Of a stretch of DNA of 45,695 nucleotides, positions 16,319-29,743 are shown one piece after another. The translations under genes and the position numbers were made by a program. The stretch's first letter is position 1, and each line of letters begins with the position of its first letter. This stretch comes from a phage. The notes below the pieces were generated by a model, which was given only the letters and a program-made list of their open reading frames with translations, did not search any database and was not told the origin of the DNA. The stretch lies in the NCBI GenBank assembly GCA_032325415.1, contig GCA_032325415.1_4119.2; one strand, 5' to 3'.

Positions 16319-16344
16319 GGCGGGATCAGTTCCCGCCTTTTTTA
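16319..16344 (+). terminator. rho-independent terminator
   Basis: GGCGGGA-TCAG-TTCCCGCC followed by TTTTTTAT. Confidence 0.8.
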
Positions 16345-16357
16345 TAGGACAAACAAA

Positions 16358-16612
16358 ATGATTAAGGTTCAACTATATAAAGATAATATCTTGCGGGTAC
16401 ACTATAAAGCCCCTCAGAGAATCATCACAAAGGCCGTACAGCTTGCTAATGAGTTTATTAATGGTAACCTATTACCTAGGAAGTTAAGCAACGGGAAACT
16501 GCGTGTAATCGACGTGGACACTAACAACAGGATAGTAATCGAGAACACAGGAAAGATAAACCTTTATGAGCATCAACAATACAATAAGAAAATAAAACTA
16601 ATATCACGTTGA
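16358..16612 (+). CDS. hypothetical protein (84 aa)
   Basis: Track ORF downstream of terminator; weak SD. Confidence 0.5.
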   Translation: MIKVQLYKDNILRVHYKAPQRIITKAVQLANEFINGNLLPRKLSNGKLRVIDVDTNNRIVIENTGKINLYEHQQYNKKIKLISR

Positions 16613-16637
16613 CAGTACTCAAATGTTTTAGTACTAT
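16609..16637 (+). promoter_or_regulatory. putative sigma70-like promoter
   Basis: -35 TTGACA 16609-16614, 17-bp spacer, -10 TACTAT 16632-16637. Confidence 0.45.
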
Positions 16638-16666
16638 ATGTACATACCAACACGGGGAGAAACAAA

Positions 16667-16909
16667 ATGATTACTTTAGAAAAACGTATCAAAGAAACTA
16701 CATCGCTGGTGGAACTGTTAACAGTACTCAAATGTAAAACTACTCGGTTTAGTACACCGGACTTTATTAATATGGTTGATGTTAATGGTCGCTATCGTAT
16801 CACGGTCGAACAAGGAGCGGCGAAAGTATTCAGTACTAAAAACACTAAGGAAGTGATTCACGCTGTAAGTGTTAAAAAAGTAGTTGCCATTGATAGTAAA
16901 GTACTGTAA
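16667..16909 (+). CDS. hypothetical protein (80 aa)
   Basis: SD GGGGAGA then ATG 16667; track ORF. Confidence 0.55.
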   Translation: MITLEKRIKETTSLVELLTVLKCKTTRFSTPDFINMVDVNGRYRITVEQGAAKVFSTKNTKEVIHAVSVKKVVAIDSKVL

Positions 16910-16940
16910 GATAGTTTCATTAACTCAAGGAGAACATGCA

Positions 16941-17525
16941 ATGCGTAATTATACTAAATTCATCCGTACCCTGTCAGAAATGGAAACCAACAAAGAGATC
17001 CTTTCAGCTTGTCGGTTAGCTGGTCTGGAGATCATCGGTGCGGGTTCTTCCCGTATTGTATTCGCTTTAAATGATCGGTTAGTGATTAAGGTCGCGAATT
17101 GTGATGCGGGTGTAGAACAAAATGAAACTGAATGTAAGGTATGGAATTTTTTAGATTATGACCGCCCTCAATTGAAACAGTACTTTGCAAAGGTGCATAT
17201 GCATTTATGCGATCCTGATAATATGTTTATCGTTATGGATCGGTTGAGTACTGCAAGTAAAGGCAGTGTAAAGCACGTAAACGCGTGCAATGAATTAAAG
17301 TACAATATTAAACGTAATGCCATTGAACGCCAGCACCGCTTTGCTGATGCACTACAACACGTTGATGATACATTATCAACACTAACGATAAGAGATATCA
17401 GAAAACAGAATATCGGCCAGGATCGTAATGGCCTTATTAAAGTACTTGATTACGGTTTAACCCGCAATATCTGGAATCAGTACTATAAAAAGCGTGATGT
17501 AGAAGCAAGTAAGGTAACACGATAA
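16941..17525 (+). CDS. putative small protein-kinase-like protein (194 aa)
   Basis: SD AAGGAG then ATG 16941; motifs IGAGSSRIVF (Gly-rich loop), LVIKVA (VAIK-like Lys), IRDIRKQNIG (HRD-x-K-x-x-N-like catalytic loop), KVLDYGL (DFG-like). Confidence 0.55.
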   Translation: MRNYTKFIRTLSEMETNKEILSACRLAGLEIIGAGSSRIVFALNDRLVIKVANCDAGVEQNETECKVWNFLDYDRPQLKQYFAKVHMHLCDPDNMFIVMDRLSTASKGSVKHVNACNELKYNIKRNAIERQHRFADALQHVDDTLSTLTIRDIRKQNIGQDRNGLIKVLDYGLTRNIWNQYYKKRDVEASKVTR

Positions 17526-17526
17526 A

Positions 17527-17612
17527 AAAAGATTAAAAAAGGGATTGACTCCGGTCAGTCCCTTTGCTATTATATATTCATTGAGAGATAACTCACTGAC
17601 CCATAGGGTGCG
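17527..17612 (+). repeat. R module copy 3 (terminator-like hairpin, embedded promoter, conserved core)
   Basis: AAAAAAGGGATTGACTCCGGTCAGTCCCTTT; -35 TTGACT 17545-17550, -10 TATTAT 17568-17573; core GACCCATAGGGTGCGGAAGTGTATCT. Confidence 0.65.
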
Positions 17613-17666
17613 GAAGTGTATCTATTATATAAGTATTCAGTACTGAAAACTATTTTTAAAAAGTAC

Positions 17667-17694
17667 TTGCATTGTACTTAGAATCAAGTATAAT
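17667..17694 (+). promoter_or_regulatory. sigma70-like promoter (cassette type)
   Basis: -35 TTGCAT 17667-17672, 16-bp spacer, -10 TATAAT 17689-17694; hairpin GAGAGGGGAA-ATGG-TTCTCCCTC. Confidence 0.65.
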
Positions 17695-17747
17695 GTTTTA
17701 TATCGAGAGGGGAAATGGTTCTCCCTCAAAGAACAAGGAATAAAATC

Positions 17748-17969
17748 ATGACTACAATGACTTGCATTCACGCTTCAAACCTGCTTAATGATGCGGCCTT
17801 TAATGTTGAAACAGAATATCAATGTTATCGGGATGAAAATAAAAAAGTTTTTGTAGTTGATAATAATGGTTTCCATATTGAATTGCAATCCGGCTTCACT
17901 GGCGTTGATGGTAAATCAGTATGGGGAGTACAGGATGATAAAGGCACATATCATTTTAAACGTAATTAA
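17748..17969 (+). CDS. hypothetical protein (73 aa)
   Basis: SD AAGGAAT then ATG 17748, in frame with track ORF 17715. Confidence 0.65.
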   Translation: MTTMTCIHASNLLNDAAFNVETEYQCYRDENKKVFVVDNNGFHIELQSGFTGVDGKSVWGVQDDKGTYHFKRN

Positions 17970-17972
17970 GTA

Positions 17973-18000
17973 TTGACAAAGTATATCAGTACTGTATAAT
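17973..18000 (+). promoter_or_regulatory. sigma70-like promoter (cassette type)
   Basis: -35 TTGACA 17973-17978, 16-bp spacer with CAGTACTG, -10 TATAAT 17995-18000; hairpin GGGGAGAA-TAG-TTCTCCCC. Confidence 0.65.
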
Positions 18001-18053
18001 AGTTTACATCAAGGGGAGAATAGTTCTCCCCACCAATAAAAGGAAACAAAATT

Positions 18054-18326
18054 ATGTCCAGCTACTCCGCTACTATGATTATTAAAGATATGAACGGTAA
18101 TCCTACTTCTGCTGGTGGATCATTTGGTAACATTAACTTAGATGGGCGGTTATCAATTGAATCAGCCATCAATGCCGCGAAAGAAGTTTTTAAGAATGAA
18201 TGTACTGTAAGCAAGCTGGATTATATGGGCTTCGCTATCGAGAAAACTAATCGTTTTGTGGACTACAAAAAACCACTGATGATCGATACTAACCTGAAAG
18301 CTAACGAAGTGGAATACTTATTATGA
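18054..18326 (+). CDS. hypothetical protein (90 aa)
   Basis: SD AAAGGAAA then ATG 18054; track ORF. Confidence 0.65.
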   Translation: MSSYSATMIIKDMNGNPTSAGGSFGNINLDGRLSIESAINAAKEVFKNECTVSKLDYMGFAIEKTNRFVDYKKPLMIDTNLKANEVEYLL

Positions 18327-18514
18327 CAGTAGAAGAAGTTAAAAAAGTACTGGCAGTACTACGCTATCATAATCATTGCAAGGTGAAGAATGATCCTGAT
18401 TATGTTGATTCATCCCTGGAGGAAGACACATTAAACGCAATAAGCCATATGCAAAAAATGCTTAAGCGTATGACCGAAAAGAACAGGCCAGACTATATCG
18501 GAAATAAAATTTAA
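18323..18514 (+). CDS. hypothetical protein (63 aa)
   Basis: ATG overlaps upstream stop (ATGA), translational coupling; track ORF. Confidence 0.55.
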   Translation: MTVEEVKKVLAVLRYHNHCKVKNDPDYVDSSLEEDTLNAISHMQKMLKRMTEKNRPDYIGNKI

Positions 18515-18521
18515 AAAGTAC

Positions 18522-18549
18522 TTGCATTGTAGTTAGATTAACGTATAAT
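18522..18549 (+). promoter_or_regulatory. sigma70-like promoter (cassette type)
   Basis: -35 TTGCAT 18522-18527, 16-bp spacer, -10 TATAAT 18544-18549; hairpin GCGGGGGAA-TAG-TTCTCCCGC. Confidence 0.65.
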
Positions 18550-18600
18550 GTTTTACATAGAGCGGGGGAATAGTTCTCCCGCCAGTCCAGGAGATACACC

Positions 18601-18864
18601 ATGAACACTATCGAAATCACTATCAATGCACACGTATACGACAACGTAGTACTGCAAACTACTATGACCGCCAATGATACCAGTACTTTGCGGAATGCCG
18701 TTGTAAGTGCTGTATGTGCTGCAATCGGTGATGTAGCCCTGGAAAATGCAGAACACATCAACAACGGTTTCACTATGTGCAAACGTGATAACGCAAAACA
18801 TATCATCGTAGAAGGTTACGGCGGTGTAGAATTTAATGTTTATATGAAAAAAGTACTTGCATAA
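18601..18864 (+). CDS. hypothetical protein (87 aa)
   Basis: SD CCAGGAGA then ATG 18601; last codons overlap the next -35. Confidence 0.65.
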   Translation: MNTIEITINAHVYDNVVLQTTMTANDTSTLRNAVVSAVCAAIGDVALENAEHINNGFTMCKRDNAKHIIVEGYGGVEFNVYMKKVLA

Positions 18865-18884
18865 TAACTAAAACAAAGTATAAT
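18857..18884 (+). promoter_or_regulatory. sigma70-like promoter (cassette type)
   Basis: -35 TTGCAT 18857-18862, 16-bp spacer, -10 TATAAT 18879-18884; hairpin GGGGGAG-ATAT-CCTCCCCC. Confidence 0.65.
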
Positions 18885-18931
18885 GTTTTGCATAGGGGGA
18901 GATATCCTCCCCCACTAAAAGGAGTAATAAA

Positions 18932-19156
18932 ATGGCTAACTTTGATGAACTGATGCGGGAAGTAGCTAACCTGGCAGAAGAGAAGAAATCATTCGATTCT
19001 ATCTATAACACCGCTCACCGTGATTCAGTACTGGCATGTACTCAGGATCAAAAAGATGAACTAATCGCCACCTATCATGAAGCATGGAAGTACTACCGAC
19101 AATGGGAGAAAGAAGAAAGTGAGTCTACCATTGACGGCCTCAATAATCTAATCTAA
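18932..19156 (+). CDS. hypothetical acidic protein (74 aa)
   Basis: SD AAAGGAGT then ATG 18932; track ORF. Confidence 0.65.
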   Translation: MANFDELMREVANLAEEKKSFDSIYNTAHRDSVLACTQDQKDELIATYHEAWKYYRQWEKEESESTIDGLNNLI

Positions 19157-19168
19157 AAGTTTTATTTC

Positions 19169-19205
19169 AGTACTATTGACATAGCTTGATAGTACTGATG
19201 TAATA
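19169..19205 (+). promoter_or_regulatory. promoter with operator-like inverted repeat AGTACTAT-N12-ATAGTACT
   Basis: AGTACTAT 19169-19176, -35 TTGACA 19176-19181, ATAGTACT 19189-19196, -10-like TGTAAT about 19199-19204. Confidence 0.55.
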
Positions 19206-19232
19206 ACTTTACTAACTACAAGGGGAAACATA

Positions 19233-19490
19233 ATGGAACAGTTCACACAATATCGGGTAAATCCTCAAGCTATGGCCTACGTAGAAGACCATAAAACATT
19301 ACCAGTACTGCAACCAGTTAAAGGCCATATCTATCGTGCTATGTCGTGGAGTACGGCCCAGGATGGCTATAAAACCGTAGCCGTTGGTATGTATTGCGGG
19401 AATGGTGAATGGTTTGATCCAAATAATCCGGTAGCCATTGACAGTACTGAAAAAATGAAATGGGCCGACTACATCGAAGATATTTCATAA
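19233..19490 (+). CDS. hypothetical protein (85 aa)
   Basis: SD AAGGGGA then ATG 19233; track ORF. Confidence 0.6.
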   Translation: MEQFTQYRVNPQAMAYVEDHKTLPVLQPVKGHIYRAMSWSTAQDGYKTVAVGMYCGNGEWFDPNNPVAIDSTEKMKWADYIEDIS

Positions 19491-19496
19491 AAAGAA

Positions 19497-19585
19497 TAAA
19501 AAAGGGATTGACTCCGGTCAGTCCCTTTGCTATTATATACGCATAGACAAAAACTAGCCCACAGGGTGCATAGGTGTATCTAAAA
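19497..19585 (+). repeat. R module copy 4 (terminator-like hairpin, embedded promoter, conserved core)
   Basis: AAAAAAGGGATTGACTCCGGTCAGTCCCTTT; -35 TTGACT 19508-19513, -10 TATTAT 19531-19536; core AGCCCACAGGGTGCATAGGTGTATCT. Confidence 0.65.
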
Positions 19586-19670
19586 TATATAGTTAATAAC
19601 GGTGAGTAACTATCTGCTGGTGGATGTACTGCCAGTACTCAAGGGAACTAAAACTATTAATAAAAAAGTA

Positions 19671-19699
19671 TTGACAAAGTATATCAGTACTGCGATAAT
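19671..19699 (+). promoter_or_regulatory. sigma70-like promoter
   Basis: -35 TTGACA 19671-19676, 17-bp spacer with CAGTACTG, -10 GATAAT 19694-19699. Confidence 0.55.
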
Positions 19700-19752
19700 G
19701 TATCTCGTAGGGCGGCAATGGTGCGACGGCCCACAAAGTTAGGAGATTCAAA

Positions 19753-20085
19753 ATGAGTACTTCAATCGCTATCGTTAAAGCTTTCATCCGTACCAATGTT
19801 TCATCTGTATTCATCGACGGACTGGATCGTGAAGTAGAATACTCAATCATTATCGCACAGACTGCAAACGGTGCTCGGTATATCCTCAATGATAGTGAAG
19901 CAAATCACTACTACTTCACTAAAGCTACTGGCTTTAAACGCATCGATGCCGATGTAGTATACGCTAAGATGAATAAGCTGGTAGACAAGATTAACGCTAA
20001 AGGCACTATTGATTTACAGTACTGGACCGAAACCGATCCAGAATATGGATCTCACCGCTACCTGAATCCAGGTATCAAAATGTAA
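19753..20085 (+). CDS. hypothetical protein (110 aa)
   Basis: SD TAGGAG then ATG 19753; track ORF; overlapping minus-strand ORF 19593..19889 rejected. Confidence 0.65.
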   Translation: MSTSIAIVKAFIRTNVSSVFIDGLDREVEYSIIIAQTANGARYILNDSEANHYYFTKATGFKRIDADVVYAKMNKLVDKINAKGTIDLQYWTETDPEYGSHRYLNPGIKM

Positions 20086-20174: not shown

Positions 20175-20576
20175 ATGACCTTCTCAATCACTTCCTTCGC
20201 TGACGTTTTAGTACTGGCTCGGACTTTTGGTAAAGATGCACTGGAGTACGCTGTAAGTAATGGTACTATCCAACCGGAACAGTGCCGCATCATTGGAAAC
20301 TGCAAACGTTGGGCGGTATCCAATACTATTGCACTGGAAAACTTCCACGATGGCAACAATGAATATTCTGTTGATGTAGTATTCGAAGCCGTTGATCTCG
20401 GCGGTATCTATAATACTAACCTGAATGATGTGCGTATCGTTCGCACGGGGTTCGGTGCTTATGATGTATCTATTCGTGAAGCTATGAACACCGGATACAT
20501 TAGCAAGGACTTACTTGCTCACATCATGCAGCTGTGTACGGAACGTAACGAAGCACGTACTATCTTAGGGCTGTAA
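20175..20576 (+). CDS. hypothetical protein (133 aa)
   Basis: SD TAAGGAGT then ATG 20175, in frame with track ORF 20112 whose start is in the promoter. Confidence 0.65.
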   Translation: MTFSITSFADVLVLARTFGKDALEYAVSNGTIQPEQCRIIGNCKRWAVSNTIALENFHDGNNEYSVDVVFEAVDLGGIYNTNLNDVRIVRTGFGAYDVSIREAMNTGYISKDLLAHIMQLCTERNEARTILGL

Positions 20577-20600
20577 GCAATACACATCACCAAACATCAT

Positions 20601-20620
20601 AGGCCGCTCTCTAGCGGCCT
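20601..20620 (+). other. GC hairpin AGGCCGC-TCTCTA-GCGGCCT (weak terminator or RNA-stability element)
   Basis: 7-bp GC stem; no T-run follows. Confidence 0.35.
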
Positions 20621-20644
20621 TAACTATATCAGGAGTACATACAT

Positions 20645-20854
20645 ATGTTCTATACAGTATACAGCGTTCTAGGTACTATTGCAGGCGTACATGATAACGT
20701 CAATGATGCTATGCGTACAGTACTGCAACAGGTTCCACTAAAGCCTAAGACCATTAAGCAGATGACAGCACGACTAACCAGGGCGACCGATGGCGTGGAA
20801 GTATGGCAGGACTACGGGGATACACAGATAATCGTTAGCGTAACGAAGGATTAA
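20645..20854 (+). CDS. hypothetical protein (69 aa)
   Basis: SD CAGGAGT then ATG 20645; track ORF; last gene before the compositional boundary. Confidence 0.6.
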   Translation: MFYTVYSVLGTIAGVHDNVNDAMRTVLQQVPLKPKTIKQMTARLTRATDGVEVWQDYGDTQIIVSVTKD

Positions 20855-20882
20855 TGCGTAAAGGGATCTAGTACTGATTCAG

Positions 20883-20948
20883 AAAAAAGTCAAGGCGTTT
20901 TTAAAATTATGCGTTAAAAAAATGCATAGGTAATCCCTTGACTTTTTT
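20883..20948. promoter_or_regulatory. perfect 13-bp inverted repeat AAAAAAGTCAAGG / CCTTGACTTTTTT with about 40-bp spacer at module boundary
   Basis: Arms at 20883-20895 and 20936-20948; flanked by AAGGGAT / ATCCCTT; related in sequence to the R-module hairpin. Confidence 0.6.
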
Positions 20949-21045
20949 GAAATAAAAGGGATTGGACTATGGCAAAATGCGTAGGGGGCTAAAGGGCGGG
21001 TAACCTTAGCGACTTCGATAAAGGTGTATTACGAATAAAATGTTA

Positions 21046-21073
21046 TTGATTTTTTATACGAATCGTATATTAT
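21046..21073 (+). promoter_or_regulatory. putative promoter for the paralog array, with palindromic operator-like site TATACGA-A-TCGTATA
   Basis: -35 TTGATT 21046-21051, 16-bp spacer, -10 TATTAT 21068-21073; near-perfect palindrome 21055-21069. Confidence 0.45.
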
Positions 21074-21103
21074 AGGATTGATATTATTTTTAATGGAGTC
21101 CCT

Positions 21104-21301
21104 ATGCGTATTTTAACTAAAGAACAGCACCACGAAAGACTTATCAATAACATGGCTATGATAATGTATAAGTCCCATGACCGTGGTATTGCCTATAAGC
21201 GTGAATTAATTATGGCACTATTCATTGGAACTAACTTTCAGGAAAGGTATGTCAACGATTGGATTTGGTATTTAATTGAAGATATAACGAGTAAACTATG
21301 A
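21104..21301 (+). CDS. family-A small paralog (65 aa)
   Basis: Track ORF; C-terminal FIGTNFQERYVNDWIWYLIEDITSKL; SD GGAG. Confidence 0.65.
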   Translation: MRILTKEQHHERLINNMAMIMYKSHDRGIAYKRELIMALFIGTNFQERYVNDWIWYLIEDITSKL

Positions 21302-21498
21302 AAATGCGTATTTTAAATAAAGAAGAATATCAATCACTGTTACGTAAAAACTTCACAAAGATTTATAATACAGACACACACGTAGAACGAATGGAGTTAT
21401 ACCTTTTGATTACTTTGGGAACTAACTATCAGGAAAGATGGGTGATTCAATATATGGATACATTGAAAAATAAAATATTGTCCACGAGGAAACAATGA
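21298..21498 (+). CDS. family-A small paralog (66 aa)
   Basis: ATGA overlap; LGTNYQERWV motif. Confidence 0.65.
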   Translation: MKMRILNKEEYQSLLRKNFTKIYNTDTHVERMELYLLITLGTNYQERWVIQYMDTLKNKILSTRKQ

Positions 21499-21704
21499 AA
21501 ACTATAACACGAACCCAATCATACGGTCTTATCTTGAAATACATGGACTTAATGGTGGATATCAGCAAAGACCTTCCTAAAACTGAAATTGAAGTTGCAA
21601 GAGCAGAGATCCGCATGTTGGCTGTACTGAACACAAACCATCAGGAAGAGTATGTTGACGATTGGATTCGATTTTTAATAGAAGATATTAAGAGTAAACT
21701 ATGA
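21495..21704 (+). CDS. family-A small paralog (69 aa)
   Basis: ATGA overlap; LNTNHQEEYVDDWIRFLIEDIKSKL. Confidence 0.65.
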   Translation: MKTITRTQSYGLILKYMDLMVDISKDLPKTEIEVARAEIRMLAVLNTNHQEEYVDDWIRFLIEDIKSKL

Positions 21705-21916
21705 TTATTATAGAAAACTCATATCAATATACTGAACGCATCGCTGCCAGACAACTTGAAATCCTCATAATATACGAAGCGACTTCTGATTTAAACTTAG
21801 CCGAGGTATTGGAAAATGATATACTATTGGGTGCATTCTTAGGAACAGACTATCAGAAGTATTATGAGGAAAAGTATTTGTCATCTCTTGAGAAATATAT
21901 CAGGAGCAAATTATGA
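21701..21916 (+). CDS. family-A small paralog (71 aa)
   Basis: ATGA overlap; LGTDYQKYYEEKYLSSLEKYIRSKL. Confidence 0.65.
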   Translation: MIIIENSYQYTERIAARQLEILIIYEATSDLNLAEVLENDILLGAFLGTDYQKYYEEKYLSSLEKYIRSKL

Positions 21917-22125
21917 TTTTTTTAACACCAGAAGAATATAAGAAACGTTTCAATTCCGCACAGGGTGAAATCTTACTTATATACCTTTCAAATGCAGACC
22001 TTAACTTATCAAGGGCAATGGAGAAGGATTTACTTATGGGTGCATTTTTGGATACAGACTTTCAGGAGTATTATGTAGGGAAATACTTAATTGAACTTCA
22101 GAACTACATTAAGAGTAAACTATGA
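21913..22125 (+). CDS. family-A small paralog (70 aa)
   Basis: ATGA overlap; LDTDFQEYYVGKYLIELQNYIKSKL. Confidence 0.65.
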   Translation: MIFLTPEEYKKRFNSAQGEILLIYLSNADLNLSRAMEKDLLMGAFLDTDFQEYYVGKYLIELQNYIKSKL

Positions 22126-22349
22126 AACATTTAAGTAATATTGAGAAGATGAGAATTATCATTGATGCATTAAACAAATACGATACCCTTTTACAAATAA
22201 AAGGTTTAACTCGATTGGAACACAAGATAAACACCACCGATGTACGCATGTTGGCTGTACTGGGGACGAACTTTCAGGAAGAGTATGTTGTTGCACACAT
22301 AGTTGCACTCACTAATTACATAATGGACAAATGTAATGAACATCATTAA
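22122..22349 (+). CDS. family-A small paralog (75 aa)
   Basis: ATGA overlap; LGTNFQEEYVVAHIVALTNYIMDKC. Confidence 0.65.
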   Translation: MKHLSNIEKMRIIIDALNKYDTLLQIKGLTRLEHKINTTDVRMLAVLGTNFQEEYVVAHIVALTNYIMDKCNEHH

Positions 22350-22560
22350 TAACTTTGAATACGAGGCCCGTGCTAAGAGTGCCAGAAAAAAAGAGAACAC
22401 CATTTACTTCACTATGATGTACTTACAATGGACTGAAATTGAAGAAAAGGTTGCTGAAGTATGGATGTTGGAATTCATGGGGACGCAGTATCAGAATAGG
22501 TTTGCGGGTGAGTATATCAATGTTCTTATGAAACAAATAGAAAGAAAGGAAAAGAACTAA
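22336..22560 (+). CDS. family-A small paralog (74 aa)
   Basis: Overlapping start; MGTQYQNRFAGEYINVLMKQI. Confidence 0.6.
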   Translation: MNIINNFEYEARAKSARKKENTIYFTMMYLQWTEIEEKVAEVWMLEFMGTQYQNRFAGEYINVLMKQIERKEKN

Positions 22561-22718
22561 TGGTTTTCATTAACATATCTGACCAACTCGATACTAAACT
22601 AGAAGTCGAGCAGAGTGAGGGATGGATGCTGTACTTTCTTGGAACTTCTCATCAGAATTTTTATATCCATGAACACATAGTTGCACTCAAGAATTACATT
22701 ATGGACAAATGCAAATGA
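22560..22718 (+). CDS. family-A paralog, shortened copy (52 aa), not in track
   Basis: ATG 22560 overlaps upstream stop (TAATG); MVFINISDQLDTKLEVEQSEGWMLYFLGTSHQNFYIHEHIVALKNYIMDKCK carries the family motif. Confidence 0.5.
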   Translation: MVFINISDQLDTKLEVEQSEGWMLYFLGTSHQNFYIHEHIVALKNYIMDKCK

Positions 22719-22972
22719 AATACTTAACACAAGATGAATATTCACTTAGAATTCGAAAGCTCACCCCAGAAGCAAGAGTAATCTACGATGACCCCACCCT
22801 TACATGGAACCAAATGCGAGCTAAAGTTAATGAGCTATGGTTGCTGTACTTTATGGGGACTCAATATCAAGATAAGTTTTGCAAAGAATTTGTCGATCAA
22901 TTAATGAATGTTATACAGGATAAACTAGATGAATATTGGCTCGCAAAACATGAAGACTTTATCAGGAGTTGA
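22709..22972 (+). CDS. family-A small paralog (87 aa)
   Basis: Track ORF; MGTQYQDKFCKEFVDQLMNVIQDKL. Confidence 0.6.
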   Translation: MQMKYLTQDEYSLRIRKLTPEARVIYDDPTLTWNQMRAKVNELWLLYFMGTQYQDKFCKEFVDQLMNVIQDKLDEYWLAKHEDFIRS

Positions 22973-23201
22973 GTATCAAACTGCCCTCTTCTCTCTTATT
23001 AACACCCTTAGAAAAAACAATGCATTACATGGTGCACCTGAAGTGGATGTTATCAACGGTGATGTTTATCTTATGAAATTCATTGGAACAAACTATCAAG
23101 ATCTGTTCATTCAACGATACTTGGCAGCATTAAGAAACCAAATCCAATATAAAACCCAGAGAGCCAAAAAAGAATGGAATAAACAATGCGACAAAGAATG
23201 A
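22950..23201 (+). CDS. family-A small paralog (about 83 aa; start uncertain, track start 22929)
   Basis: IGTNYQDLFIQRYLAALRNQI; start set at MKTLSG by analogy to other members. Confidence 0.55.
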   Translation: MKTLSGVEYQTALFSLINTLRKNNALHGAPEVDVINGDVYLMKFIGTNYQDLFIQRYLAALRNQIQYKTQRAKKEWNKQCDKE

Positions 23202-23434
23202 ACCACAAAATGTATTGTAAACTATTGCAGACACTGGCACAGAAACACTATGACACTGTATCTGAAATATTACCCTATGATATCATGCGTTTAATTCATA
23301 GTGAGGCAGAGATGCTTGTACTGATGACAGGCACTGATAAAACAGCAATCGCCAGATCGATAGAGCAATATATTGATGCACACTGCCAACACATGAGAAC
23401 CGAAATCTGGAGGAAAGAGAATGATAATTCTTAA
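23198..23434 (+). CDS. family-A-like small paralog (78 aa; track start 23186)
   Basis: ATGA overlap at 23198; degenerate motif LMTGTDKTAIARSIEQYIDAH. Confidence 0.5.
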   Translation: MNHKMYCKLLQTLAQKHYDTVSEILPYDIMRLIHSEAEMLVLMTGTDKTAIARSIEQYIDAHCQHMRTEIWRKENDNS

Positions 23435-23636
23435 TGAGTATCAGTATCATTGGAGGTTACAAACTATCAAATCAAAAGTGTATAGTATTGTGTTAAACAA
23501 ATCTATTGCACAAGAGGACAAATGTGTTATAATAGCTGAAATGAAGTTGGGTGTATTCGTAGGGACAAACTATCAAAACATCTACACTGACGTATTATTA
23601 AGTTCCTTACGTAACAAGGTGGTATCCAAAATATGA
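23421..23636 (+). CDS. family-A small paralog (71 aa)
   Basis: Track ORF; VGTNYQNIYTDVLLSSLRNKV. Confidence 0.6.
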   Translation: MIILNEYQYHWRLQTIKSKVYSIVLNKSIAQEDKCVIIAEMKLGVFVGTNYQNIYTDVLLSSLRNKVVSKI

Positions 23637-23851
23637 GAAATTTACAAGGCTTTGAATACATCAGACTCCTGAAAACATGTGGAAGCAGAAGGAGAATGAT
23701 ATCAAGCGATAAGAGCATCCAAGCTAACCTTAAGCACGCACTAGTAACTGAACTCTATGTAGGTGCACTCTTAGGCACAAACTATCAACAAATGTATGTA
23801 GATCTATGGATTGACGCTCTACAGAAAGAGGTTAAAAGTAAATGCAAATGA
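23633..23851 (+). CDS. family-A small paralog (72 aa)
   Basis: ATGA overlap; LGTNYQQMYVDLWIDALQKEVKSK. Confidence 0.65.
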   Translation: MRNLQGFEYIRLLKTCGSRRRMISSDKSIQANLKHALVTELYVGALLGTNYQQMYVDLWIDALQKEVKSKCK

Positions 23852-24060
23852 TTAATTTAAGTAAAGACGAATTTTATGTTATACTGGCGAAAACTTATCC
23901 AGCACGTAAGGCCGTTTATGATAGTAACATTATTGAACCCTCAAAGAAGTTGATTTTAGTAAATGAGATAAAGATGCTTTCAGTCTTAGGGACAAACTAT
24001 CAAGAGAATGCTGTACTGATGTTAATTGATGCCCTCCAGCGAGAGGTTAAACGTAAATGA
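23842..24060 (+). CDS. family-A small paralog (72 aa)
   Basis: Track ORF; LGTNYQENAVLMLIDALQREV. Confidence 0.65.
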   Translation: MQMINLSKDEFYVILAKTYPARKAVYDSNIIEPSKKLILVNEIKMLSVLGTNYQENAVLMLIDALQREVKRK

Positions 24061-24287
24061 AAATGATTCATTTAACTTACCATGAATATCAAAAACGTTT
24101 AAATGCATCCAGAGATATAAGGATTCAAATATTCAATAACAAAAGATTGAAGCCTGATATCAGAAAAATCAAAATTATAGAAGCAGAGTTATGCAACTTT
24201 CTAGGGACCAACTATCAGGCAGGTAAGGTAAAAAACTATCTTAGAGAACTAAAGAATAGTATTGAAAATAAATGTGAGGGTAATTAA
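24057..24287 (+). CDS. family-A small paralog (76 aa)
   Basis: ATGA overlap; LGTNYQAGKVKNYLRELKNSIENK. Confidence 0.65.
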   Translation: MKMIHLTYHEYQKRLNASRDIRIQIFNNKRLKPDIRKIKIIEAELCNFLGTNYQAGKVKNYLRELKNSIENKCEGN

Positions 24288-24288
24288 C

Positions 24289-24528
24289 ATGAAAATGATT
24301 AAATTATCTCAAGCAAAATATAAAGAACGCCTGGTGAAAATTGCACCTGGACTTAATGAAATCCATCACGGAGAAGTCATTAAACACGGAAATAAGATGA
24401 TTATGAAACTTGAGTTAAAGGTGGGTGCATTCATAGGAACAAACTATCAGGAGTATTATGTAGATGAATACATAATCGCACTTAAGAGATACATTGGAAG
24501 AAAACTATATCTACAAACTAAAGAATAG
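24289..24528 (+). CDS. family-A small paralog (79 aa; track start 24262)
   Basis: ATG 24289 just after upstream stop; IGTNYQEYYVDEYIIALKRYI. Confidence 0.6.
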   Translation: MKMIKLSQAKYKERLVKIAPGLNEIHHGEVIKHGNKMIMKLELKVGAFIGTNYQEYYVDEYIIALKRYIGRKLYLQTKE

Positions 24529-24557
24529 TATTGAAAATAAATGTGAGGTTGATGAAC

Positions 24558-24821
24558 ATGCAAATGATCAATTTAAGTAAAGATGAATATACCGAGCGTA
24601 TGACAAAAATTACGCACAAACGTAATACAATCTATCACAACCCAGAAATTCAACACAGTAAGAAAATGATTATGATGCGTGAGTTAAAGATGGGTGTATT
24701 CTTAGGAACAAACTATCAAGATACAGAAGTAAATCGCTTAATCGCGGAGTTACTACTGGAAATCAAAGGTAAGCTGTACTTTTATCAAATGACCCAACCA
24801 CTAAGGTGTACTGATCGATGA
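24558..24821 (+). CDS. family-A small paralog (87 aa; track start 24531)
   Basis: Start MQMINLSKDEY matches N-terminus of 23842 gene; LGTNYQDTEVNRLIAELLLEI. Confidence 0.6.
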   Translation: MQMINLSKDEYTERMTKITHKRNTIYHNPEIQHSKKMIMMRELKMGVFLGTNYQDTEVNRLIAELLLEIKGKLYFYQMTQPLRCTDR

Positions 24822-25069
24822 ATACTATGAATAAAATTAATAAAATCGACTTAGCAGAAAGTTTTGCCAGAATGGGGGAAGCTCTGAAAAGATACGAAAA
24901 GGAATATGGTCATTTAAGCTTTTCTATAGAAAAGAGATATGAACTGGAAACAGAGTTTAAAATGCAGAGTCTCTTAGGAACACAATATCAAACAAGATAT
25001 GTTCAAACTTGGATTGATTGTTTAATCCAGACAATTCATGTAAGGAACATTAAATGCAAAATGAAATGA
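24818..25069 (+). CDS. family-A small paralog (83 aa)
   Basis: ATGA overlap; LGTQYQTRYVQTWIDCLIQTI. Confidence 0.65.
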   Translation: MNTMNKINKIDLAESFARMGEALKRYEKEYGHLSFSIEKRYELETEFKMQSLLGTQYQTRYVQTWIDCLIQTIHVRNIKCKMK

Positions 25070-25308
25070 TATACTTAACCTATAATGAATACGTCGAGAG
25101 ATTAGTTCGTGCCAAGAGATATACCAATAAACGTCCAATTGACCTAAACCAAACCCCAGCAGAAAGGAGTGCAGAAGTATTATTCCAATCACTACCATAT
25201 CTTCTGGGAACTGATAGACAAGAGGAATATGTTGCACGTATGATTAGATATCTTAAAATCACTATTAAGGAAAAAGTAAATGCAAATGAAATACTTAACA
25301 GACGATGA
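25054..25308 (+). CDS. family-A small paralog (84 aa; alternative start 25066)
   Basis: Track ORF; LGTDRQEEYVARMIRYLKITIKEK. Confidence 0.6.
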   Translation: MQNEMIYLTYNEYVERLVRAKRYTNKRPIDLNQTPAERSAEVLFQSLPYLLGTDRQEEYVARMIRYLKITIKEKVNANEILNRR

Positions 25309-25531
25309 GTTAAAAGAACGACTAATTAAATCCAGAAAACTTACAAATCAACTTCCAAACGACACAAACAAGTCACATGCCGAAAGGAGTGCAGAAGTTT
25401 TATACATTCAACTCATGTACTTTCTTGGAACTGACAGACAAGAGTATTACATTGAAAGTATGCTTCGATATCTTAAATTCTCTATAAAGGAAAAGATACA
25501 TGCTCAAGAATTTAAAAATCCTAACAGTTAA
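25280..25531 (+). CDS. family-A small paralog (83 aa)
   Basis: Track ORF; close paralog of 25054 (SHAERSAEVLY...LGTDRQEYYIESMLRYLKFSIKEK). Confidence 0.6.
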   Translation: MQMKYLTDDELKERLIKSRKLTNQLPNDTNKSHAERSAEVLYIQLMYFLGTDRQEYYIESMLRYLKFSIKEKIHAQEFKNPNS

Positions 25532-25742
25532 TGAATATCATACGATTGTAATGAAAACTAATAGTGCAATTTCTAAAAAATCAAACCCAAAGTACATACT
25601 GGAACACACATTTGAAGAACGTCAATTAGCTTTAGTTGAAGCAAAACTTCTTGCACTCCTAGGGACTAACTATCAAGAAGAATACATCAGAAAACTAATA
25701 TACCTTTTAACTAAACATATAAGAAAAAGAAAAAATGCATGA
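25500..25742 (+). CDS. family-A small paralog (80 aa)
   Basis: Track ORF; LGTNYQEEYIRKLIYLLTKHI. Confidence 0.6.
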   Translation: MLKNLKILTVNEYHTIVMKTNSAISKKSNPKYILEHTFEERQLALVEAKLLALLGTNYQEEYIRKLIYLLTKHIRKRKNA

Positions 25743-25969
25743 AACACTTGACAGATGATGAACATGGGCTTATAGTAATGGATGTAATCAACATCGAATA
25801 CAAAAAGTTGATACGCTACCGTTGTTATGAAGATAAGCAACTCGTTCTAGCAGAACAGAAGTTGTTTCGACTCTTAAACACAAACTTCCAAGCACAATAC
25901 GAAGAATCGTATATGTACCTTTTGGCGAGGAAAGCAAAAAGAGATTATGAAAATTTTAAGCAAAGGTGA
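25739..25969 (+). CDS. family-A small paralog (76 aa)
   Basis: ATGA overlap; LNTNFQAQYEESYMYLLARK. Confidence 0.6.
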   Translation: MKHLTDDEHGLIVMDVINIEYKKLIRYRCYEDKQLVLAEQKLFRLLNTNFQAQYEESYMYLLARKAKRDYENFKQR

Positions 25970-26162
25970 TTCAGTAATATTACTTATAGAGAGTTCAAGT
26001 AAATTCTTAAACATAACACTGTCTGATATAGATGAAGATGACAAAGAAGTACTGAGAGCAGATTTAAGAGTACTGTTACATATCGGAACAAACCTACAAG
26101 AAGAATATGTAGAGTGCTACATCAATGAACTTAAAGAATCCGTATTGAGAAAATGCAAATGA
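25947..26162 (+). CDS. family-A small paralog (71 aa)
   Basis: Track ORF; IGTNLQEEYVECYINELKESV. Confidence 0.6.
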   Translation: MKILSKGDSVILLIESSSKFLNITLSDIDEDDKEVLRADLRVLLHIGTNLQEEYVECYINELKESVLRKCK

Positions 26163-26401
26163 AAATGAAAATCATTTCACCCACAGAATACAACCAACTA
26201 TTAAGTAGTTTAATTCTAAAGTTGTTTATAACAAAAAGCATGAAATTACCAGATGATGAAATAAGTATTCTAGTAAGTGAAATCTATGTTCAAGCTACAC
26301 TAGGGACTAACTACCAAGAATGCAATATTAATGATTACATCAAAGAACTAAAAAGGTTTATCCAATGCAAATGCGAATCATTACCGACGAAGAATACCTA
26401 A
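26153..26401 (+). CDS. family-A small paralog (82 aa)
   Basis: Track ORF; LGTNYQECNINDYIKELKRFI. Confidence 0.6.
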   Translation: MQMKMKIISPTEYNQLLSSLILKLFITKSMKLPDDEISILVSEIYVQATLGTNYQECNINDYIKELKRFIQCKCESLPTKNT

Positions 26402-26607
26402 CAATCTTAAATGGACTGTTTTTGAAGTTATTTGCCATTAACACATCAAAACTACCAGATACTGATAAAATTATTAAGTTAAATGAAATCTATGTTCAAG
26501 CTACTCTAGGAACTAACTATCAAGAAGCCAATGTGTATAATTACATTAATACACTCAAAAGGGTAATAAAATTAAAATGCACAGACAACACACACACAAA
26601 CCCCTAG
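26365..26607 (+). CDS. family-A small paralog (80 aa)
   Basis: Track ORF; close paralog of 26153 (KLPD...EIYVQATLGTNYQEANVYNYINTLKRVI). Confidence 0.6.
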   Translation: MQMRIITDEEYLTILNGLFLKLFAINTSKLPDTDKIIKLNEIYVQATLGTNYQEANVYNYINTLKRVIKLKCTDNTHTNP

Positions 26608-26807
26608 GAACAGCAGAATACATTGAACTAATGGCATTACACTTCTCATCCTTTCAGAAACTTAGGCGAGAATCAAAGAATGATTTAGAATATACCATCA
26701 GAGGTTCCGATTTAAGAATGCTTCTCACCCTAGACACAGATTCCCAAGAGCGATTTGTCAATGAGCATATTAGAGCACTTTTAATGGAAATTCAAAGTAA
26801 ACTATGA
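26577..26807 (+). CDS. family-A small paralog (76 aa)
   Basis: Track ORF; LDTDSQERFVNEHIRALLMEIQSKL. Confidence 0.6.
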   Translation: MHRQHTHKPLGTAEYIELMALHFSSFQKLRRESKNDLEYTIRGSDLRMLLTLDTDSQERFVNEHIRALLMEIQSKL

Positions 26808-27019
26808 AGATAATATCAAACCAAGAGTACTTGGCACTATTCAGGAAGAATAATCACAAATATATGGCACTTGATTCAAGAACTGATATAAGTGAACTTG
26901 AAAAAAATCTTTTGCGTTCAGATATGATAGTACTGACACTCTTAGGAACACAGCATCAAGAGAGAACTGTTAATTCACACATAGGTATTCTTATACAGAT
27001 TGTACAGGAAAAGATATGA
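26804..27019 (+). CDS. family-A small paralog (71 aa)
   Basis: ATGA overlap; LGTQHQERTVNSHIGILIQIV. Confidence 0.65.
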   Translation: MKIISNQEYLALFRKNNHKYMALDSRTDISELEKNLLRSDMIVLTLLGTQHQERTVNSHIGILIQIVQEKI

Positions 27020-27237
27020 GAATCATAACACAACAAGATATTCTTAAGTTCACAAGGGTTCATGCATCTGAATTTGATGCTATATTATCAAAAAGTTACA
27101 ACAACCCTTATACACAAGATGTACATTACAGTGAATTATGGATGTATATACTTTTAGGTACAAATAAGCAAGAGCAAGCCGTACAGAAGTATTTGACAGC
27201 TTTACGTGATGCTACAGCTAATGGAGTATGTGTTTAA
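27016..27237 (+). CDS. family-A small paralog (73 aa)
   Basis: ATGA overlap; LGTNKQEQAVQKYLTALRDA. Confidence 0.65.
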   Translation: MRIITQQDILKFTRVHASEFDAILSKSYNNPYTQDVHYSELWMYILLGTNKQEQAVQKYLTALRDATANGVCV

Positions 27238-27238
27238 T

Positions 27239-27481
27239 ATGAAAGTACTGACAGAACTAGAAATGTATCATAGATTTAATAAGTACTATCATTTACTTAA
27301 GCCTATACAGAGGATTAAATGTCCATTTGAAGAGAAACAGGTTTTAATCTATGAGCACAAGTTCTTTGTATCATTAGGTACAGATCAACAAGAGTACTAT
27401 TTGACGTTGTACTTGATTACATTAATAGATTTAATTCACTATAAAACCAAACAAGCTAATAAAGAGAAATATGAAAACTAA
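27239..27481 (+). CDS. family-A small paralog (80 aa; track start 27206)
   Basis: ATG 27239 right after upstream stop; LGTDQQEYYLTLYLITLIDLI. Confidence 0.6.
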   Translation: MKVLTELEMYHRFNKYYHLLKPIQRIKCPFEEKQVLIYEHKFFVSLGTDQQEYYLTLYLITLIDLIHYKTKQANKEKYEN

Positions 27482-27815
27482 TATACAACTCAAGGTATAT
27501 AAATCATTTGAACATACATATATCAAAAGTAGTCTATGTAGAGATGTAATGGATTACAAGGGTAAGCCATTCACAATTACCTATGATTCTTATGTTAGTG
27601 ATTTATATATATCATTTGTTAATTACGAAAATAAAATATACAAGCACGTTGATATTAAAGATTTAAGTACTTTATCACCAGAGGAATACTTTCAGGAATC
27701 ATTAGTATGGGATTTAGAGTTTCCTATGCCATTAGTACATAAGATGATAGTACTAATGAAAGAATCTAAACAGGAGCCTAATGGTGATTATGAAGAACAC
27801 ACAGTTGAGTATTAA
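27471..27815 (+). CDS. family-B paralog (114 aa)
   Basis: Track ORF; motif LSPEEYFQESLVWDLEFP. Confidence 0.6.
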   Translation: MKTNIQLKVYKSFEHTYIKSSLCRDVMDYKGKPFTITYDSYVSDLYISFVNYENKIYKHVDIKDLSTLSPEEYFQESLVWDLEFPMPLVHKMIVLMKESKQEPNGDYEEHTVEY

Positions 27816-28185
27816 AAGTACTGATAATATTAAGAGTTATACAAGCTCAAGTACTGTGACAATCGAAGTGAATTCTATTAATGCTGGTAATGCAGTAGAT
27901 AAGTTCTTTATTGCTCAAGGGTACAGGAAAGATATTCATCAATATTGTTCAGTATATGGGGAGTACAATAGTACTGAAGATATAATTTATTGGTCAACAC
28001 ATCAAGATTATCTAACTAAAATTGGAGTCCCAGATGTTAGTACTTTATCTGAAGAAGAATACTTTCAGTACAGCTTAATATGTGATGTACCTATACCTTT
28101 AGGGTTAATCAAGGGTATACAGGAAGAGGTTCATAAGCTTAAATCCATGAGTAAAGGTACTTTCATTAGAACAGTGCAATACTAG
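27781..28185 (+). CDS. family-B paralog (134 aa)
   Basis: Track ORF; motif LSEEEYFQYSLICDVPIP. Confidence 0.6.
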   Translation: MVIMKNTQLSIKSTDNIKSYTSSSTVTIEVNSINAGNAVDKFFIAQGYRKDIHQYCSVYGEYNSTEDIIYWSTHQDYLTKIGVPDVSTLSEEEYFQYSLICDVPIPLGLIKGIQEEVHKLKSMSKGTFIRTVQY

Positions 28186-28186
28186 C

Positions 28187-28215
28187 TTGACAGTACTTTT
28201 CATTACTGATATAGT
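28187..28215 (+). promoter_or_regulatory. internal sigma70-like promoter within array
   Basis: -35 TTGACA 28187-28192, 17-bp spacer, -10 TATAGT 28210-28215. Confidence 0.5.
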
Positions 28216-28244
28216 ACACTAACGTTAATCATAGGGTAAAAATT

Positions 28245-28490
28245 ATGTTAAATTTTTTAAATTTCCTTATCGTTTTGTGTATTGTTCTTGGGATTGCACC
28301 ATTTGTATTGTATTTCATGGATTCAGATGAAATGCAGAAGATGAATTGTACAAGGACAGGACAGAGTAGAGAAGAGACGATTCTTATGCCTGTTACGGTT
28401 ATTGTTAACAACATGCCCATTACAAACATGGTCCCTACCCTAACGACAACGTACCAGTACTCTTGTGCTGACGGAGAGAGGTGGAGATGA
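28245..28490 (+). CDS. small membrane protein (81 aa) with N-terminal transmembrane helix
   Basis: MLNFLNFLIVLCIVLGIAPFVLYF hydrophobic N-terminus; own promoter; track ORF. Confidence 0.55.
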   Translation: MLNFLNFLIVLCIVLGIAPFVLYFMDSDEMQKMNCTRTGQSREETILMPVTVIVNNMPITNMVPTLTTTYQYSCADGERWR

Positions 28491-28807
28491 AATTTAATAT
28501 TGCAAAAACATCGAGTATATGTATTTTTGGTTATGCTGATGAGTTAGGTGATATTGACATTCTTTTGTACAAAAAGGATGGTGTTATGCATTTCAAGTAC
28601 CAGGATGAAGAGGCAGACAATTATCTTTTACCTAATTTAGTACAAATGCAGGAAGAGGAATTATTCCAGTACAGCTTAGTATACGACATTGATATTTGCA
28701 CGATGCCAGTACTAATTAGTATTCAAAAAGTGATGCTCGATATGTATGATAAGCTAATACAAGGTATGTCAGGGAGAATCATTGAAATCGATATACAAGA
28801 CAATTAA
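28487..28807 (+). CDS. family-B paralog (106 aa; track start 28481 is GTG)
   Basis: ATGA overlap; motif QEEELFQYSLVYDIDI. Confidence 0.6.
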   Translation: MKFNIAKTSSICIFGYADELGDIDILLYKKDGVMHFKYQDEEADNYLLPNLVQMQEEELFQYSLVYDIDICTMPVLISIQKVMLDMYDKLIQGMSGRIIEIDIQDN

Positions 28808-29000
28808 TCAAGAATGGAAGACCCAAAAGTACAGGGAATTCAACAGGAATTTTACAAAAGATGCATTGAATTTAAAAACAACAGAGTTTGATATGTTTAT
28901 TTTTCTTGGAACACGTTCACAAGAACAATTTGTTCATTATTATATAAATTCGTTGCGAACGGAGATAGTATGCAAAACACAGGGTATTATAAAAAGGTAA
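28782..29000 (+). CDS. family-A-like small paralog (72 aa)
   Basis: Track ORF; LGTRSQEQFVHYYINSLRTEI. Confidence 0.55.
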   Translation: MKSIYKTINQEWKTQKYREFNRNFTKDALNLKTTEFDMFIFLGTRSQEQFVHYYINSLRTEIVCKTQGIIKR

Positions 29001-29236
29001 ACCAATATTTGTACGCTACAAAGTACAGGGATTTTTGTTTAAAGGGTGGTGATGAAGATTTTTCTTTGCGATTATCAGAATTTAATCTGTTATTTTATCT
29101 TGGTACAAAAGAACAAGAAGAAATGGCACAGAAATTTATCAAGCACCTTGTACAAAAAATTAATATGCAAATTTTGATGCTTAAGATACAGAATGAGATA
29201 AATGAATATGAATCCAGAAATAGTTCAGGATCTTAA
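28970..29236 (+). CDS. family-A-like small paralog (88 aa)
   Basis: Track ORF; LGTKEQEEMAQKFIKHLVQKI. Confidence 0.55.
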   Translation: MQNTGYYKKVNQYLYATKYRDFCLKGGDEDFSLRLSEFNLLFYLGTKEQEEMAQKFIKHLVQKINMQILMLKIQNEINEYESRNSSGS

Positions 29237-29594
29237 AAAAGTAATATTTCTTTTGAATACCAGAAGTGAATTGTATACAGAGTTAAAAGAGATTAATGCA
29301 TTTTATCAGAATTTTGTAATCCAAGAGTTCAGTGATTTAATTACAGATGCATTATTTGAATTCTCGGAGAAATACAAAGGTTCAGAGTTCAGTGTTAAGA
29401 ATGTTATTCGTCCAAGTACAAGGAAAATTATATTATCACATTTTACATTTGACAATAAAGATTTATTCAGTCATAATCCAAGTACAGCTTTATATTTTAT
29501 TCCTGATTCAGACAAAAATCATCCTATTCATTACGGATGGATTTTGTCATATATAGTACAAGGAAAGGAGTATCCTATTAAATGGAAAGATTAG
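29202..29594 (+). CDS. hypothetical protein (130 aa), no family motif recognised
   Basis: Track ORF within array. Confidence 0.5.
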   Translation: MNMNPEIVQDLKKVIFLLNTRSELYTELKEINAFYQNFVIQEFSDLITDALFEFSEKYKGSEFSVKNVIRPSTRKIILSHFTFDNKDLFSHNPSTALYFIPDSDKNHPIHYGWILSYIVQGKEYPIKWKD

Positions 29595-29743
29595 GGCGAT
29601 TAGATTATTACACAATTAATACAAATTATTTGTTGCGTAATATAAAATCCGATTACAAAATATGGATAAAGAACAGAGATAGCATGTGTTATGAATTTTA
29701 TTTAGATTATGCTATCAAACGATTTTTAAGAGAAGAACATTAA
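29582..29743 (+). CDS. possible small protein (53 aa), not in track
   Basis: ATG 29582 to TAA 29741-29743, which overlaps the next ATG (TAATG); fills an otherwise empty gap. Confidence 0.35.
   Translation: MERLGRLDYYTINTNYLLRNIKSDYKIWIKNRDSMCYEFYLDYAIKRFLREEH

Follow-up and report, generated by a model that had tools for sequence, protein, structure and literature searches.

This study concerns a 45,695-nucleotide stretch of phage DNA (contig GCA_032325415.1_4119.2 of GenBank assembly GCA_032325415.1), referred to throughout as the window, and in particular the tandem arrays of small paralogous genes that it carries. The main array, of family A, comprises 31 units on one strand, where three would suffice to speak of a tandem array, and most neighbours overlap through their stop and start codons (Table 1). 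Over bases 21000–28000 the window matches 36 phage records, all of them PBECO4/121Q-like jumbo coliphages (Asteriusvirus); nucleotide identity to the best-covered records is 84–96%, and none of the 36 is identical to it. The window thus belongs to an Asteriusvirus. Passages from papers on phages of this type (CBB, Sharanji, fEgEco12 and a jumbo-phage overview) describe neither the arrays nor their variation. The group member Sharanji has a direct terminal repeat of 20,668 bp (PMC11895373); since the family-A array starts at position 21104, it would thus lie just inside the unique region. Haplotypes at three indel sites were counted from the spans of BLAST alignments across the phage collection, and the sequences themselves were inspected at 14 fetched loci for the A array and at five for the family-B site.

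The original prediction had singled out a segment of roughly 30 bp repeated before two gene starts, at about 24232 and 24512, a 52-aa shortened family-A copy at 22560–22718 and a truncated family-B fragment, and had read them together as traces of ongoing unequal crossing-over. All three features are present in the window, the junction positions being off by 5–16 nt.

Table 1. Coordinates of the features discussed in the text (positions are those of the window)
Feature	Position	Strand	Remarks
Main family-A array	21104–29236	+	31 tandem same-strand genes of ~65–90 aa, phrog_4148; from open reading frames (ORFs), hidden Markov model units and alignment
A06 tail, left copy of 58-nt repeat	22292–22349	+	81% identity (repeat search), 88% over first 50 nt (BLAST); holds CACATAGTTGCACTCA
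Gene A07	22336–22560	+	Part of 378-bp variable unit
Gene A08	22560–22718	+	52 aa; N-terminus MVFINISD, gap of ~23 residues, core, C-terminal helix; mosaic tail
A08 tail, right copy of 58-nt repeat	22670–22727	+	Period 378
Gene A15	24057–24287	+	Last 11 codons (ELKNSIENKCE) within repeat copy 1
Repeat copy 1	24247–24279	+	C-terminal coding sequence of A15 and GAGG ribosome-binding site of A16; converted sites 24253 and 24276
Gene A16	24289–24528	+	Variable 269-bp unit; native sequence to ~24507–24516, then relic out of frame, TAG at 24526–24528
Joint zone	24496–24516	+	Likeness to WPEC3 A16-type tail stops after GGAAGAAAACTA; likeness to A15 tail (AAAACTAT ... AACTAAAG) starts
Repeat copy 2	24516–24548	+	Relic of A15-type tail; end and stop of A16, ribosome-binding site of A17
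Gene A17	24558–24821	+	Nearest paralogue of A16 in the window, 75% nucleotide identity over 226 nt
85-nt repeat copy 1	36675–36759	+	96.5% identical to 37204–37288; 5′ end of fragment ORF 36674–36838
Unique segment	36760–37203	+	444 bp, no nucleotide paralogue in the window; rest of fragment ORF and gene 36835–37206 (phrog_13866)
85-nt repeat copy 2	37204–37288	+	5′ end of intact family-B gene 37206–37562 (phrog_15629)

A junction repeated on either side of A16

The 32-mer quoted in the prediction occurs exactly twice (24248–24279 and 24517–24548), where shuffled sequences give an expectation of 0. Exact identity extends over 33 nt (24247–24279 and 24516–24548), the longest exact repeat within the family-A array, and this 33-mer is nested in a direct repeat of 226 nt that is 75% identical and has a period of 269 (24227–24452 versus 24496–24721). 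Without the 33-mer the longer repeat is 70% identical, and a perfect run of 33 nt would have a probability of ~5e-4 under uniform divergence. Both copies end in GAGG, 9 nt upstream of an ATG (24289 and 24558). Copy 2 is read in another frame than copy 1 and supplies the last three codons of A16 together with its TAG stop.

On its 3′ side the A16 unit runs into what is left of an A15-type tail, a relic whose length is between 33 and ~50 nt. In WPEC3 an A16-type gene with its own tail (...YIGSKLSKRARNAND*) is found in another slot, between A13 and A14. A16 of the window tracks this type of tail as far as GGAAGAAAACTA (24496–24507), downstream of which the A15 frame of the window reads ENYIYKLKNSIENKCE, that is, an A15-type tail. 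The relic-to-A17 junction (GTGAGGttgatgaacATGCAA) is in turn the native A15-to-A17 junction of CMSTMSU, WPEC3 and WPEC5, all of which lack A16 at this site (the beta type described below). Wherever it is placed, the joint between A16 and the relic is shifted by ~36 nt plus 1 relative to the family alignment and does not keep the reading frame; it is an illegitimate or microhomology join rather than a classical in-register crossover. Programmed frameshifting into the frame of the relic was also considered and was dropped, no slippery site or conservation argument having been found.

The survey found the 269-bp A16 unit in about 20 records and found it missing from 12, and among the fetched genomes the number of junction copies usually tracks the presence of A16. 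Two copies are found in six A16 carriers (the window, CRJP21, G17, PBECO4, EC22.5-2 and ELP-22) whereas UB, 121Q and CMSTMSU, all without A16, have one; in four further A16-less genomes the A15 tail is too diverged for the junction to be matched. UE-S1 is the exception: A16 and the relic are both present, copy 1 has diverged, and one copy is left within five mismatches. The junction of A16-less genomes is single and a hybrid of the two copies. UB, for example, combines the left flank of copy 1 of PBECO4 with the right flank of copy 2, the crossover lying inside a perfect stretch of 38 bp that is common to both junction copies of PBECO4. The two genomes differ by one mismatch in 580 bp on the left and by seven in ~290 bp on the right, two of these seven falling in the first 6 nt of the repeat. 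UB accordingly looks like PBECO4 after a precise deletion within the 38-bp repeat. Three forms of the A16-less junction can be distinguished, alpha (gtaattaac) in UB and 121Q, beta (ttgatgaac) in CMSTMSU, WPEC3 and WPEC5, and gamma in TH47, ph0011 and Turkey3. Since the alpha junction otherwise always precedes A16, the alpha form looks like a deletion derivative.

The perfect identity of the two 33-mers can be attributed to a later event. From 23819 to 24765 (947 bp) only positions 24253 and 24276 distinguish the window from CRJP21; these two belong to copy 1, and at each of them the window has the base of copy 2. By our own calculation, the chance that two differences show this placement and direction is ~4.5e-4. 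This indicates a short gene-conversion patch, covering 24 bp or more, that was copied from the relic to the tail of A15; the patch would explain the perfect 33-nt run, and it alters the C-terminus of A15 from ..ELMNSIENKCKGN to ..ELKNSIENKCEGN. The opposite transfer is found in PBECO4 and EC22.5-2, where copy 2 bears the gtaattaac junction of copy 1, and in PBECO4 this reverse patch gave rise to the 38-bp perfect repeat. Conversion tracts between the copies are thus recorded both in the comparison of the window with CRJP21 and in PBECO4. The same comparison, extended over 23000–24765, also reveals a sharp mosaic boundary, with ~23% divergence up to 23818 and no more than the above two differences in the 947 bp that follow; its breakpoint falls within the A13 tail, close to a conserved AAAAGTAAATGCAAATGATTAATTTAAG gene junction.

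Shortened genes and other variable units

In a profile search, family A corresponds to phrog_4148, a family of ~70 aa (E 1e-18 to 1e-27; for A15–A17, 1e-23 to 1e-27). Its protein alignment has a central LGTNYQ motif and a mean column identity of 26%. Neither family A nor family B nor the inserted gene at 36835–37206 scored above threshold against Pfam, and the matches in PHROGs are only to families of unknown function. An AlphaFold2 model of A14 (23842–24060), built from the 31 in-window paralogues, has four helices, with a predicted local distance difference test score of 97 and a predicted template modelling score of 0.82. A Foldseek search with this model returned no match at E <= 1e-3 in PDB; in BFVD the top nine matches had E values of 1.2e-3 to 0.5 and, where named, were Asteriusvirus proteins. 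A tblastn search with A14 found the family confined to the 36 Asteriusvirus-like records. Two more members of the family lie at 41813–42206, 12 kb downstream of the main array and amid other gene families.

The match of the shortened gene A08 to phrog_4148 (E 8e-11) covers only positions 27–72 of 74. Its first eight residues (MVFINISD, compared with MNIINNFE in A07) are aligned by MAFFT with the N-terminus of the family and are followed by a gap of 23 columns, so that an in-frame internal deletion over helices 1–2 is as likely as a 5′ truncation. With helices 1–2 missing, A08 most likely cannot form the predicted four-helix fold of its family. The head of A08 is 99% identical in G17 and PBECO4. 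The tail of A08 in the window is 82% identical to the A08 tails of these two genomes, as against 94% to their A06 tails and 93% to the A06 tail of TH47, and the switch in identity falls at the common block CACATAGTTGCACTCA. When aligned, the short form of ELP-22 and UB has an A06 head, which passes within the CACATAGTTGCACTCA block into an A08 tail of G17 type, followed by A09. The join in ELP-22 and UB lies in a block of 16–19 nt common to A06 and A08, and the A08 tail of the window has been exchanged at the same block. The span survey of this site counted 11 long records, 12 short ones that lack 378 bp and eight intermediates. Of the intermediates, six lack A08 and have the A07 slot occupied by a different gene, the other two being 121Q records with an A07-like gene and no A08. 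In UE-S1 a further ~57 bp of A08 is missing.

The family-B fragment is an ORF at 36674–36838, with an ATG at 36677 and a predicted product of 54 aa. It matches phrog_15629 over positions 1–39 of 121 only (E 1e-9), as compared with E values of 1e-56 to 1e-58 for intact family-B genes; like A08, it is a truncated or decayed, pseudogene-like member of its family. The variable unit at this site, of 529 bp, is made up of the 444-bp unique segment and one 85-mer. Twelve records have the long form and 20 the short form, which by alignment span lacks exactly 529 bp. In all four of the short forms inspected one 85-mer is retained, with copy-1 variants in PBECO4 and TH47 and copy-2 variants in ELP-22 and UB, which implies either two crossover positions or two source alleles. 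The fragment flanks a unit with a gene of another PHROG, phrog_13866, and is not the product of a simple crossover between family-B genes. Genes of the phrog_13866 type, with an EE(E/Y)FQES-V-D motif, are found at 27471–28807, 36835–37206 and 43361–43723 and cross-match phrog_15629; judging from these matches, the two families would seem distantly related, with members dispersed over the region.

Every indel that was inspected at the level of bases has its boundaries in direct repeats of 24–85 nt made of gene ends. WPEC3 and WPEC5, whose flanks are 97–98% identical, differ by an A16-type unit of 235 bp, carried by WPEC3 and missing from WPEC5, which is flanked by a repeat of 24–26 nt made of gene starts. 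Isolates also differ in A14, A24 and an extra A19-like unit. A24 and A25 form a tandem pair that is 77% identical (26153–26607; 132-nt repeat, period 206); A24 is missing from TH47, EC22.5-2, G17 and 121Q, being thus another variable unit of the array. The A19-like unit lies between A18 and A19 in UB, G17, EC22.5-2, WPEC3/5, TH47 and 121Q, and the window (24818–25308) is without it. The A18 slot itself holds an unrelated allele in PBECO4, G17, EC22.5-2 and TH47.

All four haplotype combinations were found both for the A16 and family-B sites and for the A07/A08 and family-B sites, examples being G17 (long/long), PBECO4 (long/short), EC22.5-2 (short/long) and UB (short/short). This implies either recurrent events or exchange between lineages. 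Identity of other isolates to the window shifts gene by gene, in a patchwork of 70–100%; significant switches were counted at 59 of 312 gene boundaries and in 32 of 336 gene cores, counts that are not independent, owing to common ancestry. Repeats are also found elsewhere in the window. A third array, of phrog_9317 (37928–40249), contains exact repeats of 42–46 nt between non-adjacent copies (38236–38281 = 40075–40120; 37940–37985 = 39343–39388), which may be conversion tracts. Positions 1–20000 contain many exact repeats of 30–62 nt (e.g. 14914–14975 = 17639–17700; 14814–14862 = 19499–19547; 3427–3474 = 3985–4032). They resemble promoter cassettes (AAAAAGTACTTGCA ... GTATAATGTTTTACATC) present many times over, together with terminator hairpins (AAAAAGGGATTGACTCCGGTCAGTCCCTTT), and probably lie within the direct terminal repeat region.

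Interpretation and alternative explanations

We consider that the repeated junction, A08 and the family-B fragment are recombination scars in tandem arrays of small early genes, a reading to which we would assign a probability of about 85%. The boundaries of indels lie in paralogous repeats and the short form keeps a hybrid repeat or gene (UB; ELP-22 and UB; WPEC3 versus WPEC5), and close relatives are polymorphic for copy number (A16, A07 with A08, A24, A14 and the A19-like unit). The prediction that unequal recombination shaped the arrays is supported in so far as copy number and junctions both vary among independent public genomes, at the A16, A07/A08 and family-B sites. Units may have been deleted by homologous recombination between short repeats and added by illegitimate joins, probably between misaligned genomes that were co-replicating or co-infecting, while alleles of single genes would have been swapped by exchange between related phages. 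At the A16 site, the likely order would be a beta junction (A15-ttgatgaac-A17), the addition of A16, homogenization of the junctions and, finally, a deletion giving the alpha form of UB and 121Q.

Several points weigh against this reading. The direction of gain or loss is inferred at each site, and the short form could be ancestral. The joint of A16 is ambiguous within 24496–24516, since the residues KLYLQ also resemble KLYFYQ of A17. Haplotype counts derive from BLAST spans, bases having been inspected at the 14 and five loci mentioned above, and the public genomes were assembled from short reads to an uneven standard, CMSTMSU and UE-S1 showing many frameshifts. As to whether expansion and contraction are ongoing, as originally predicted, events do separate near-identical genomes; the claim nevertheless rests on differences between isolates, from which the rate within a population can only be inferred.

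The origin of A16 may be accounted for in two ways. One is an old in-place tandem duplication of the A15 tail, the junction and an A17-like gene, after which the gene bodies would have diverged to 75% while repeated conversion kept the junctions alike. The duplicated unit is exactly tandem, with a period of 269, A17 is the nearest paralogue of A16 in the window, and conversion between the junction copies is seen directly; moreover, 121Q is the most distant species, and its alpha junction (gtaattaac followed by A17) has the look of a deletion derivative, which would make A16 old. On the other hand, the A13/A14 slot of WPEC3 and CMSTMSU holds an A16-type gene with another native tail, suggesting that A16 and A17 are distinct lineages and not a young pair, and a body divergence of 25% beside a junction identity of 94–100% would require sustained conversion limited to ~40 nt. 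We regard such a duplication as quite possible, though at somewhat less than even odds. Alternatively, A16 and A17 may have been divergent alleles of one slot in two phages, stacked by a single out-of-register join at co-infection between a donor with A15–A16 and a recipient with the A15 tail and A17. This single step would explain both the diverged bodies and the near-identical junctions. It would be consistent with the fact that alleles of one slot differ by up to 25–30% between isolates, matching the distance between A16 and A17, and with the identity of the relic-to-A17 junction to the native junction of beta-type genomes. However, an A16-type gene is the sole occupant after A15 in none of the 14 fetched genomes, all 12 of the A16-less survey records still align across the start of A17, and the present data do not separate this possibility, which we likewise place below even odds, from in-place duplication.

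It is very improbable that the 33-mer is instead a functional element (a translation-coupling or ribosome-binding region, a promoter or a protein-binding site) kept by selection and unrelated to recombination. GAGG does stand 9 nt before ATG in both copies, and a weak promoter-like match (9/12) occurs at 24262–24290, but the whole window has only two copies within three mismatches for ~30 array junctions, and the number of promoter-like matches in the array (42) is about that expected by chance (44.5). Furthermore, copy 1 codes for part of A15, whereas the reading frame differs in copy 2. In most relatives the two copies are not the same, so that perfect identity is not a conserved trait. A role of the 33-mer in regulation was rejected, as the scan of 20500–29600 for promoters and terminators was at chance level. 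Hardly credible is the proposal that the indels stem from a mobile element or homing endonuclease, or from faulty assembly. The 529-bp family-B unit is a whole gene between direct repeats and thereby superficially resembles an insertion with target-site duplication. Yet this gene (36835–37206, phrog_13866) is a distant relative of the neighbouring family with no Pfam match and no nuclease signature, and the flanking repeats, of 33–85 nt, are gene ends; a duplication of 85 bp far exceeds those made by transposons. An assembly artefact is at odds with the presence of the same structures in many isolates sequenced independently in different countries. Repeats of 33–85 nt are shorter than typical reads, and collapse would not be expected with such repeats and gene bodies that are only 75% identical.

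Comparison with known systems

The recombination scars proposed here reveal no new mechanism, nor the role of the proteins. What the arrays offer is a base-level record, across many genomes, of turnover in the blocks of small 'hypothetical' genes of jumbo phages, in which microhomology joins, short conversion patches, deletions between repeats of 24–85 nt and swaps of gene-sized alleles can be followed. When annotating arrays of this kind, one should be prepared for relic tails and hybrid genes. In addition, a 269-bp size polymorphism, scored by polymerase chain reaction across 24200–24600, would provide a simple recombination marker for Asteriusvirus stocks, several of which are under consideration for phage therapy.

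The mechanism is of a known kind, and its closest described analogue is the lpl cluster of Staphylococcus aureus (Tsuru & Kobayashi 2008, PMC2568036). Like family A, this cluster consists of tandem same-strand paralogues with a conserved central block that were compared across many genomes of one species group. In both systems, recombination adds, removes and shuffles units, and the repeated unit may reach from the 3′ part of one gene across the junction into the 5′ part of its neighbour, as does the 269-bp unit here (24227–24495). Evolution by lpl-type units would concentrate breakpoints in the central block and give the two halves of a gene discordant histories. Mid-gene switches do occur in family A (32/336), but gene boundaries show them about twice as often (59/312). 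The lpl pattern thus does not seem to be the dominant one in family A; from the distribution of the switches, the gene, rather than a boundary-spanning unit, seems to be the commoner unit of exchange. Family A further differs in consisting of ~70-aa phage proteins and no lipoproteins, and in having one joint out of register.

In the rII region of phage T4, deletions with endpoints in short direct repeats, of which one hybrid repeat is kept, were reportedly described by Singer and Westlye in 1988. The difference between UB and PBECO4 at the 38-bp repeat is of this type, as are those at the repeats of 24–26, 58 and 85 nt at other sites. In contrast to the T4 deletions, which were selected in the laboratory within one gene, those considered here are polymorphisms that occur naturally in multigene arrays, with repeats that had themselves arisen by duplication at an earlier stage.

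Poxvirus 'gene accordions' are said, after Elde and colleagues in 2012, to be transient amplifications of near-identical copies under selection. The multigene families of African swine fever virus and these accordions share with the present arrays the occurrence of non-essential-looking paralogues near the genome end, in numbers that depend on the isolate. The array indeed begins just past the direct terminal repeat of ~20.7 kb reported for Sharanji (PMC11895373). In contrast to the poxvirus accordion, neighbours in family A are only 20–75% identical and the nearest ones 75–77% at the nucleotide level, with no identical tandem copies; the window shows no gene amplified into near-identical copies.

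Among jumbo phages, Bacillus phage G is described as having a lineage-specific expansion of ~35 small Zn-ribbon genes (Iyer et al. 2021, PMC7824862). It resembles the present case in being a jumbo phage in which a single family of small proteins, with a role that is not known, has some tens of members. The fold and family are different, and the relevant passages of PMC7824862 contain no analysis of junctions or of variation between isolates. Going further, one may speculate, although we consider it rather unlikely as a whole, that the arrays are a recombination-driven reservoir of an orphan family of four-helix early proteins. Divergent alleles meeting at co-infection would be stacked by out-of-register joins, their junction repeats would be homogenized and would then serve as deletion sites, and the content would turn over gene by gene under pressure from the host, for instance from defence systems. 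If this were true, the arrays would be to phages what multigene families are to the large DNA viruses of eukaryotes.

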